From positions 237 through 64,236 of the forward strand of contig JAFWYK010000010.1 in NCBI GenBank assembly GCA_017517685.1: DNA of 64,000 nucleotides. The letters run 5' to 3'. The notes beneath the pieces are model-generated. The model was not told where the DNA came from. It saw only the letters and a program-made list of their open reading frames with translations, and made no database searches. Numbering within the stretch: position 1 is the first letter of the stretch; each line of letters opens with the position of its first letter. The translations under genes and the position numbers were made by a program. This DNA is from Clostridia bacterium. GTDB lineage: Bacteria > Bacillota > Clostridia > TANB77 > CAG-508. This document shows, piece after piece, positions 44,762 through 45,386 of the stretch.

Positions 44762-44800
44762 AAAACCGACCCAGAAGTCTCTGAGTCGGTTTTGAAGTTT
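44762..44800. terminator. GC-rich bidirectional terminator shared by mfd and cassette C
   Basis: ACCGACCCAGA-agtc-TCTGAGTCGGT flanked by an A-run and a T-run. Confidence 0.75.
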
Positions 44801-44801
44801 T

Positions 44802-45314
44802 TTACACTTGCAGTTTCATGCTGTAGACGCCACGGTATGCGAAAACGATAGCGGAACGCGGGTTGTCTCGTGCCGGATTAACGACGAATCTGATTTCTTC
44901 AAGCTTTTCATAGTCAAGCGGAGGATGACCGTTGAGATCATACTCGTACGAAAATTCCGTACGCTTGTATTCGAGCTTCTTTATGACAGTACCATACGAT
45001 ACGAGCTTTTCGCGCACACCAGCAATCTCCTCATAGTTAGAGAGGTTGATTAAGATGGTGTTGGATTCGGCATCGAGTCGTACGAGTCCATCGATGTCTT
45101 CGACAACGATACATTTGGTCCAGAAGAATATATCACGGATCTCTCCGAGTAATTCAGCAGACAGGCATTCAACGTTCTTCGGGGCAATGTAAATTGCGTC
45201 CTTGATGAGCTGAATGCAGCCGGTATCTACGCCATGTTTTGTAAGGGTCGTCTTGAGCAGTTCTACTGCAGCTTGTGTGTGCCGTTTAGCAACAGCATTG
45301 TTATTTTCCTTCAT
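44802..45314 (-). CDS. 170-aa soluble protein, unknown (cassette C, foreign composition)
   Basis: ATG at 45314 lies 6 nt after GGGAGG; the track start at 45395 has no SD. 50 G+C in 44821-44920. An ORF this long is unlikely by chance at this GC. Confidence 0.7.
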   Translation of the reverse strand: MKENNNAVAKRHTQAAVELLKTTLTKHGVDTGCIQLIKDAIYIAPKNVECLSAELLGEIRDIFFWTKCIVVEDIDGLVRLDAESNTILINLSNYEEIAGVREKLVSYGTVIKKLEYKRTEFSYEYDLNGHPPLDYEKLEEIRFVVNPARDNPRSAIVFAYRGVYSMKLQV

Positions 45315-45357
45315 TGTATTGCCTCCCTCTGGTGTGGAAAATTTATCTGTAACAGCT

Positions 45358-45386
45358 ATTATATCACAAAAAAGGCTGAAAGTCAC
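45358..45386 (-). promoter_or_regulatory. promoter of cassette C
   Basis: On the minus strand: GTGACT, 17 nt, TATAAT, with TGa extended -10. Confidence 0.45.

Follow-up and report, generated by a model that had tools for sequence, protein, structure and literature searches.

The 64-kb stretch of Clostridia bacterium DNA analysed here (contig JAFWYK010000010.1, positions 237 to 64,236; hereafter the window, numbered from its first letter) contains, between the gene for Mfd/TRCF and that for a SpoU/TrmH-family methyltransferase, a compact GC-rich island (44762-45386) that we refer to as cassette C. CpXC, DUF4364 and pepF genes lie further out. The island holds a single open reading frame (ORF) together with the signals expected of a complete transcription unit, all on the minus strand:

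44762 to 44793, minus strand: intrinsic terminator hairpin, a 14-pair stem (6 G-C) followed by a T-run on the minus strand.
44802 to 45314, minus strand: coding sequence (CDS) of cassette C, 170 amino acids plus stop, from the ORF list; GC 0.46, GC at third codon positions (GC3) 0.515.
45315 to 45351, minus strand: 5' untranslated leader, holding the Shine-Dalgarno (SD) sequence GGGAGG, with an inferred transcription start.
45358 to 45386, minus strand: sigma-A type promoter found by promoter scan, with -35 GTGACT (45386-45381), a 17-nt spacer and TG-a-TATAAT (45363-45358).

A preliminary description of this DNA, made from the letters alone, had placed a 170-residue ORF at 44802-45314 between mfd and a TrmH methyltransferase and had assigned it a GGGAGG SD and an extended -10 promoter; coordinates and neighbours agree with ours, and both signals were located by sequence and promoter scans. 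An alternative, longer reading of the ORF would begin at an ATG at 45395 and give 197 amino acids, but the -10/-35 promoter sits downstream of that ATG, and the 170-residue start is therefore the functional one. The promoter matches 10 of 12 positions, in addition to the extended -10 TG, and the SD (45322-45327) lies 7 nt ahead of the ATG. These signals are kept across the family to which, as described below, cassette C belongs. The extended -10 (TGnTATAAT or a one-base variant) stands at the same distance in 22 of the 23 members examined, the remaining one having TA for TG; the leader, TTACAGAnAAAnTTTCCACACCAGAGGGAGGCAATA, is nearly invariant in five alleles, although identity between their coding sequences is only about 80%; and the terminator stem is altered in sequence with its pairing preserved through compensatory changes, as in the AAAACGCCCCGG...CCGGGGCGTTTT of allele L103. 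Promoter, leader, SD and terminator are retained in all alleles, which bears out the description of the cassette as an autonomous promoter-SD-ORF-terminator unit, and no such hairpin occurs at the empty mfd-trmH sites of relatives. Cassette C is, on its sequence, probably well expressed. The hairpin lies 5 nt past the mfd stop codon and could also end mfd transcription; its T-tail in that direction (TTTTGAAGTTTTTT) falls below the rule of the terminator scan, so that the bidirectional terminator shared with mfd stands for the minus strand and is only plausible for mfd. The trmH gene has a promoter of its own (window 45436-45464, TTGATA-17 nt-TG-n-TATAAT, 11 of 12 positions). We also noted, just upstream of the -35 in several alleles (e.g. 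window 45387-45420; L092, L093), a degenerate direct repeat TGTRAA-N5-(T)GTRAA that recalls OmpR/WalR-type response-regulator sites, and about 5 kb away there is a conserved pair of genes for an OmpR-family regulator and a kinase (50926..53133). As a response-regulator site, TGTRAA-N5-TGTRAA was rejected: it shows no enrichment in the window, which holds 6 matches where 6.1 are expected, and none occurs upstream of the cassette C promoter even when one mismatch is allowed.

Several counts speak to whether this island is real and coding. Its GC content is 44.8%, against 28.8% for the window, and a recount gives exactly 50 G+C in 44821-44920, the figure reported earlier. The earlier argument that an ORF of this length at this GC is unlikely to arise by chance is upheld by shuffling of the island, in which a stop-free run of at least 170 codons appeared in 3 of 5000 shuffles, and by ratios of nonsynonymous to synonymous substitution (dN/dS) of 0.09-0.19 against close alleles. 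Misassembly, which had been named as an outcome that would overturn the description, is excluded, since the junctions of the locus are identical in independent ENA, Logan and GenBank metagenome-assembled genome (MAG) assemblies. The hexamer CGTACG does occur three times in the island, as had been remarked (at 44945, 44958 and 45079; at least three copies in 1 of 5000 shuffles), and five times in the whole window against 0.38 expected. It is missing from most alleles and its position is not conserved, and hence we reject it as a functional motif of the family.

Cassette C differs sharply from its surroundings in codon usage. Its GC3 of 0.515 compares with 0.134 in mfd, 0.117 in trmH and 0.08-0.19 in all ordinary window genes, ribosomal proteins included, and its overall GC of 46% with 27-29% around it. 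Its codon table is approximately the inverse of the host's: CTC accounts for 0.53 of leucine codons (0.00 of 1213 in host genes), CGN for 0.89 of arginine codons (0.07 in host genes), CCG for 0.80 of proline codons (0.03) and ACC for 0.44 of threonine codons (0.01). The GC-rich block is coextensive with the transcription unit: the final 300 nt of mfd and the opening 300 nt of trmH are at 23-24% GC. This composition does not behave as a fading one. In five window-type alleles whose synonymous sites are near saturation (proportion of synonymous differences, pS, 0.62-0.69), GC3 is always 0.51-0.535, and third-position changes polarised by parsimony are balanced between strong-to-weak (S>W, G/C to A/T) and weak-to-strong (W>S), at 25:28, 19:15, 20:18 and 30:22, where a two-state model calculation with the host bias (equilibrium GC3 about 0.13) would give about 7 S>W per W>S. 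Across 26 alleles GC3 ranges from 0.235 to 0.63, in every case above the host. One pair, L186 and L089, linked to type IV secretion system (T4SS) genes, with proteins 72.5% and flanks 85-95% identical, has 35 synonymous sites strong in the former and weak in the latter against 3 of the reverse kind (GC3 0.537 versus 0.235). The outgroup L187 has 16 strong and 19 weak bases at the sites at which they differ and gives no polarity; decay in L089 is the simpler reading of the shift.

The balance of changes and the constancy of GC3 together imply that the composition of cassette C is stationary and is not the signature of a fading import. Since the host genomes appear to erode GC where nothing opposes it, something would seem to maintain GC at the synonymous sites of most alleles. 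Against synonymous shuffles, the CDS folding z averages -2.3 in the family (26 alleles) and -1.3 in the host (22 genes or segments), and is -1.1 in the window allele. We weakly favour the view that the anomaly is kept by selection on the transcript or on its translation, and that neither recent import nor biased gene conversion accounts for it. The foreign composition ascribed to the ORF in the preliminary description is thus correct insofar as the composition is alien; the implied recent import does not hold, given a slot-resident family across a clade, a stationary GC3 and no member found in a GC-richer genome.

The family is small. A word-indexed search returned six clusters at 76-100% identity, all metagenomic; a HMMER profile search of 1.84 billion representative proteins gave 22 matches, one of them a spurious repeat protein, leaving about 21 clusters; and a close-allele profile run against 185,579 species-representative genomes found one locus, in a Candidatus Scatovivens MAG. 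The Mfd of the window is 93-94% identical to that of Scatovivens MAGs. So few matches, all in one clade, indicate a family that is real, small and clade-restricted, and in these searches it appears as a previously unannotated family confined to Candidatus Scatovivens-like gut Clostridia. Searches of phages (tblastn, 50,697 records), plasmids (tblastn) and IMG/VR returned no member, nor did any turn up in a GC-richer genome, phage or plasmid.

We fetched 80 species-representative loci through the C-terminus of Mfd, and in 77 of these mfd is still followed by trmH. Whether the spacer is empty in relatives, a check proposed at the outset, has a clear answer: it is shorter than 300 bp in 57 of the 77 (at most 100 bp in 45 loci, 102-291 bp in 12), including L011, whose Mfd is 90% identical to the window's. 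These short spacers are AT-rich and lack a terminator, and some measure only 2-3 bp, for which reason mfd and trmH look co-transcribed in those species. In species with an empty slot trmH follows mfd by 2-90 bp without a terminator, and the presence of the cassette thus goes with an uncoupling of trmH from mfd transcription. At 16 of the 80 loci there is one ORF that matches the family hidden Markov model (HMM; 10 strong, 2 moderate and 4 weak matches), always on the strand opposite to mfd, in either a two-module form of 156-206 residues or a one-module form of 85-102. The species holding the slot span 74-94% Mfd identity, and amino acid identity within the family falls to about 20%. Five further metagenomic members that we checked occupy the same mfd-trmH slot, and all contexts examined (the 16 species loci and the metagenomic members checked) are AT-rich. 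Four other loci (L015, L063, L082, L085) carry unrelated genes in the spacer, which makes the mfd-trmH slot a general insertion hotspot; these encode a 161-residue protein (host-like GC3 of 0.13), a 110-residue membrane protein, a 133-residue protein and a 433-residue transporter-like protein.

A subgroup of the family (P0033, P0032, P0022) has a second home, with a row of TrbC/VirB2-like T4SS genes on one side and a uracil-DNA glycosylase gene on the other, where it too has its own extended -10 promoter and terminator; a longer P0033 contig also has a TraC-like gene. In L089 (1-5869), L186 and L187 we observed five tandem TrbC/VirB2-like small membrane proteins, a VirB3-like, a TraC-like and a partial VirB4-like protein, at GC3 of about 0.1, with a family-4 uracil-DNA glycosylase gene on the opposite side. 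P0033 was not found in scans of genome or metagenome contigs.

The alleles evolve rapidly under constraint. The ORF stays open in all of them, and dN/dS is 0.09-0.4 in six allele pairs and 0.09-0.11 for the window allele against L002 and L008, values that point to purifying selection on the protein. At the same time the amino acid sequence of the cassette diverges from 3 to about 100 times faster than Mfd, as four pairs illustrate:

L030 and L031: Mfd C-terminal identity 99.5%, cassette 68%.
L012 and L013: Mfd C-terminal identity 97.5%, cassette 77%.
L016 and L024 (long and short form): Mfd C-terminal identity 95.7%, cassette 58%.
L031 and L040: Mfd C-terminal identity 94%, cassette without significant match (E 3.4).

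In L030 and L031 the synonymous divergence (dS) of mfd is 0.06, against saturation (pS 0.78) in the cassette, and nucleotide identity runs from 99% in mfd to 68% in the cassette, 93% in trmH and about 75% over the next 2 kb before returning to 99%, a profile that implies allele replacement by recombination in the flanks. Replacement through homologous flanks in turn points to AT-rich relatives as donors. The Mfd proteins of L009 and L010 are equally near that of the window (94% for L009), with cassettes 45-46% and 75% identical, respectively, and the L105 allele is a mosaic of an L008-type N-terminal half and an L103-type C-terminal half. A separate observation concerns L001, a 4-kb metagenome contig 98.8% identical to the window across trmH and its neighbours, which departs from the cassette ORF after ...YEYDLNG (L001 3800-4061; window 44928) into 262 nt of unrelated sequence at 45% GC that gives another C-terminus (P0006). 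That C-terminus has no protein homologue and no DNA match, at a coverage of 2.3x, and the junction may be either a low-coverage assembly chimera or a singleton strain variant.

Structure prediction and homologue searches, both proposed as checks in the preliminary description, yielded a confident fold and no well-characterised homologue. AlphaFold run with five close sequences gave a predicted local distance difference test score (pLDDT) of 36 and was discarded, whereas 29 diverse members gave a usable AlphaFold2 (AF2) model (m94eb3d003ee7; pLDDT 90.6, predicted template-modelling score 0.85) with two consecutive alpha-beta-beta-alpha-beta-beta modules, listed here with helices as H and strands as E:

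45039 to 45314, minus strand: N-terminal module, residues 1-92; AF2 H11-26, E34-37, E40-43, H53-64, E78-81, E86-90.
44805 to 45038, minus strand: C-terminal module, residues 93-170; AF2 H94-106, E110-117, E120-126, H135-145, E155-160, E163-169.

The two halves align in register with hhalign (E=7e-4). The C-terminal module is common to all members and is all that remains in the short ones (85-102 residues), which lack the N-terminal module; it carries the family motif F.F.Y..(N)G...L.Y.EL..I..IVNP, within a protein in which L138 is the sole invariant residue and Y125 and P147 are near-invariant. The model accordingly depicts a tandem duplication of a ferredoxin-like module of about 85 residues; some species have one module only. 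Foldseek found no whole-protein match in PDB or BFVD (template-modelling (TM) score below 0.4); a single module resembled the C-terminal domains of PulM, EpsM and XcpY, with E 0.02-0.3 and target-normalised TM of 0.46-0.53. Isoelectric points (pI) in the family are 4.7-6.6 and grand averages of hydropathy (GRAVY) -0.36 to 0.00, and no long hydrophobic, membrane-type stretch was seen by inspection of the sequences, no dedicated transmembrane predictor having been run. From the fold and the pattern of conservation, we infer a soluble, non-enzymatic protein that would form a pseudo-dimer, the short forms being true dimers.

The impression that the sequence holds no recognisable catalytic or binding motif was matched by searches of Pfam, NCBIfam, PHROGs, PADLOC, PDB sequences, Rfam and Foldseek, all of which came back empty. 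More precisely, Pfam, NCBIfam, PHROGs and PADLOC scans and PDB sequence and profile searches gave no consistent match for the window protein or the 29 members; PADLOC had no hit to the window protein and, among the 29, only two stray sub-threshold hits. Rfam had no match in the window at gathering threshold (best permissive hit 29.6 bits against a 45-bit cutoff), and ARAGORN found no tRNA or transfer-messenger RNA (tmRNA) in the window. Around cassette C there are no terminal inverted repeats, target-site duplication or attC-like repeats, only short chance-level repeats in the AT-rich flanks; the sole strong inverted repeat is the terminator hairpin, and the empty sites of relatives show no insertion footprint. 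A number of candidate identities were rejected in consequence. An integron gene cassette would be at variance with the lack of an attC site, the ORF's own promoter and the absence of an integrase among the neighbours, and a transposon or insertion sequence (IS) with the lack of inverted repeats, target-site duplication and footprint. The unit is monocistronic between its own promoter and terminator, with no second conserved ORF in the spacer, which argues against a toxin-antitoxin or toxin-immunity pair; and no PADLOC model identifies it as a defence-system protein. As to GspM/PilO-like secretion components, their membrane anchor and operon context are lacking: no membrane-type stretch was seen on inspection, and the contexts are mfd/trmH or TrbC-like T4SS genes, not a type II secretion system (T2SS) or type IV pilus.

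Cassette C is not the only island of its kind in the window. Three further GC3-outlier islands, described from the outset as cassettes A, B and D, are indeed present and have the same anatomy:

3099 to 3404 (unit 3099-3452), plus strand: cassette A, 101 amino acids with two hydrophobic stretches; GC 0.47, GC3 0.55; G+C-rich terminator 3433-3452.
40703 to 40936 (unit 40516-41063), plus strand: cassette B, 77 amino acids, hydrophobic N-terminus and charged tail; GC3 0.385.
53197 to 53388 (unit 53138-53462), minus strand: cassette D, a candidate 63-residue ORF; GC3 0.41.

Cassette A is flanked by a YlmC/YmxH-like gene and an M23 peptidase gene. The corresponding spacer in four syntenic relatives holds small hydrophobic proteins of raised GC (83 and 89 residues, in L108 and L109) or nothing (L106, L107), which makes cassette A look like a variable mini-gene of the cassette C type. 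Cassette B, just upstream of mfd, has an extended -10 promoter at 40516-40544 and a 14-pair terminator at 41032-41063; tblastn found no homologue of it in the 80 mfd loci, where the spacer is 85-1445 bp, a weak test for a protein so short and hydrophobic. An extended -10 promoter (53462-53434) and terminator-like hairpins (53205-53187 and 53167-53138) accompany cassette D, which sits between a histidine kinase gene and a minus-strand gene (53457..54173) whose product starts with CxxxCxxC and which we take to be a putative pyruvate formate-lyase activase. The shared anatomy of A, B and D and the presence or absence of cassette A suggest that GC-rich variable mini-genes are probably general in these genomes. 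Elsewhere in the window, the DUF4364 and M3 (PepF-like) peptidase genes are separated by a gene (47623-49038) for a 471-residue protein without a Pfam match, and some relatives (e.g. L008, L100) have, in the same position, genes of 441-451 residues with no recorded Pfam hit.

Judged by sequence comparison, cassette C is a long-term, fast-evolving resident of its slot in AT-rich gut Clostridia, and its alien composition is maintained. Taking the lines of evidence together, we suggest that it encodes a non-enzymatic binding protein at a hypervariable locus, probably in genetic conflict, a joint reading to which we would give slightly less than an even chance of being right. Cassette C is a genuine autonomous transcription unit, with promoter, conserved leader, SD and terminator, in a fixed mfd-trmH slot and always convergent with mfd. 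Species differ in its state: some have lost or truncated it, and in others it is a recombinant mosaic or has been exchanged wholesale for a divergent allele by recombination in the flanks. Its product would be a binder in the form of a pseudo-dimer, with true dimers in the one-module forms, directed at a partner that itself evolves fast, and its role could be that of an inhibitor, an immunity-type protein or a factor interacting with a mobile element. Such a role in conflict would explain the combination of purifying selection at the level of the fold with rapid turnover of the surface, the replacement of alleles, the frequent loss and the second home beside T4SS genes. Taken by itself, the functional proposal, a non-enzymatic binder of a fast-changing partner in genetic conflict, is tentative, and we would expect it to fail more readily than to hold. 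There are several points that weigh against this interpretation. Only the way in which the family evolves and the class of its fold speak for the proposed function; cassette C has no toxin, restriction or defence gene beside it and PADLOC gave no hit; no family member was found in the phage or plasmid collections; the T4SS-adjacent copies are only putatively on a mobile element; and fast evolution could equally reflect weak constraint on a dispensable protein. Parsimony polarisation is, moreover, crude where sites are near saturation, and the folding scores give selection for mRNA structure, as an explanation of high GC3, weak support at best.

Other explanations must be set beside this one. 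A recent horizontal import, by which a promoter-ORF-terminator cassette, not yet ameliorated, would have entered the mfd-trmH spacer from a GC-richer donor, would fit codon usage and composition radically unlike those of the host, the spacer that is empty in most relatives, L011 among them, the moron-like anatomy and the one-way GC-to-AT decay (35:3) of the single pair L186/L089. We nonetheless consider it unlikely, in that the same slot is filled across the whole range of Mfd identity with family members as little as about 20% identical, replacement by homologous flanks implies AT-rich donors and every context examined is AT-rich, no homologue outside the clade was found in the 1.84 billion representatives or the phage, plasmid and IMG/VR sets, GC3 has stayed at about 0.52 although synonymous sites are close to saturation, and the terminal inverted repeats, target-site duplications and attC-like repeats of a recent arrival are absent. 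The composition might instead owe its GC3 to GC-biased gene conversion at a recombination hotspot, with no selection involved. Recombination and mosaic alleles are documented at this locus, and recombining genes have higher GC3 in most bacteria (PMC4450053); yet the GC-rich block stops sharply at promoter and terminator, and what makes the mechanism unattractive is that the recombining flanks are not GC-enriched (23-24% GC, GC3 about 0.12-0.13). A rise in GC3 from 0.13 to 0.5 is, by our own assessment, also very large for such a process, which we regard as highly improbable. That there is no protein gene at all, and that the island is a structured non-coding RNA or a chance ORF in GC-rich sequence, is hardly credible. 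GC-rich islands in AT-rich genomes are often RNA genes, and the transcript folds somewhat better than shuffles (z=-3.0, terminator included), but the CDS folding z of the window allele is ordinary, no Rfam match reaches gathering threshold and no tRNA or tmRNA is present, the ORF is open in all alleles with dN/dS of 0.09-0.4, and co-variation in just 29 protein sequences sufficed for a fold of pLDDT 90.6.

Two further proposals concern what the cassette does. It may act as a local regulator or accessory factor, either on its divergent neighbour (trmH or the TrbC-like operon) or together with Mfd; in both contexts the cassette is always transcribed away from the neighbouring operon, and the mfd/trmH linkage holds across the clade. 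Set against this are the lack of any detected DNA-binding domain and a mildly acidic pI, the many relatives that keep mfd and trmH, often 2-90 bp apart in an apparent operon, without the cassette, the fact that the two contexts have no neighbour in common, and a turnover of the cassette that is extreme beside highly conserved Mfd and TrmH proteins, and we judge this explanation decidedly unlikely. A similar, if marginally greater, scepticism applies to rare-codon gating, in which cassettes A, B, C and D would be kept in host-avoided codons so as to depend on scarce tRNAs or on tRNA or rRNA modification. Host-avoided codons do dominate, the anomaly is limited to the transcription unit and stationary, four independent mini-genes in 64 kb share it, and strong promoters and SDs combined with poor codons suggest control at elongation; but the window has no tRNA gene, no single codon stands out, GC3 varies from 0.235 to 0.63 between alleles, and adjacency to trmH is explained by positional inheritance and is absent in the T4SS-linked copies.

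It is also conceivable that cassette C represents an undescribed class of GC-rich mini-genes, of which the window would have at least four (A, B, C and D), bounded by the transcription unit, with codons actively held and proteins or alleles in fast turnover at fixed intergenic slots, together with a new conflict-linked family of binding proteins; as a whole we rate this as improbable as a local regulator. Such a class would entail a gene-specific, selected codon regime, acting through gating by rare tRNAs or RNA modification or through shielding of the transcript from AU-directed RNases or toxins. The protein family is new, and so is the stationary codon anomaly. Should the binding-protein reading prove true, a confidently folded family without relatives in the libraries is a defined target, and the fixed slot and natural series of alleles would help to find its partner. 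Deviant composition is widely used as a marker of recent transfer, and here, at equilibrium in genomes that erode GC, it provides a counter-example in need of a mechanism, be it codon or transcript selection or some local bias. AT-rich gut Clostridia may then hold many such mini-genes, labelled 'hypothetical' or missed by annotation, and what keeps some genes compositionally apart from their genome would become directly testable.

Comparison with known systems places cassette C near several of them. Phage morons are autonomous promoter-ORF-terminator insertions (PMC3594210). Cassette C resembles them in its own promoter and terminator, deviant GC, presence or absence between collinear relatives and single accessory ORF. 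In contrast to morons, it lies between chromosomal mfd and trmH, with no adjacent phage genes and no homologue in phage collections, and its slot is inherited, its alleles are swapped by homologous recombination and its deviant composition is stationary. The bldA/TTA system of Streptomyces offers the precedent of a small set of genes written in codons that are otherwise avoided; in cassette C the bias runs the other way, towards GC-ending codons in an AT-rich genome, it extends to many codons instead of one, and no dedicated tRNA was identified. Orphan immunity and inhibitor proteins of polymorphic-toxin and mobile-element conflicts form another class for comparison. With no toxin gene, secretion-system substrate or paralogue array beside it and no link by homology, cassette C differs from these, and it is like them in being small, cytoplasmic, putatively non-enzymatic, fast-evolving, patchy, unrecognisable by sequence and, to all appearance, strongly expressed. 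In structure, one module has the topology of the periplasmic domains of GspM/PulM/EpsM, GspL/XcpY and PilO type, from which cassette C is set apart by the absence of sequence similarity, membrane anchor and T2SS or type IV pilus context and by the tandem arrangement of the module in a soluble protein; the PulM, EpsM and XcpY domains are dimerisation modules, which fits the pseudo-dimer envisaged here. Finally, there are the replacement-type flexible genomic islands and hypervariable loci, such as O-antigen and capsule loci and pherotype or immunity cassettes. Cassette C is a single gene of about 0.6 kb and not a multi-gene cluster, and it encodes a cytoplasmic product without a cognate partner gene, but it shares with these loci a fixed position, divergent alleles in near-identical backgrounds, breakpoints in conserved flanks, mosaics and frequent loss.

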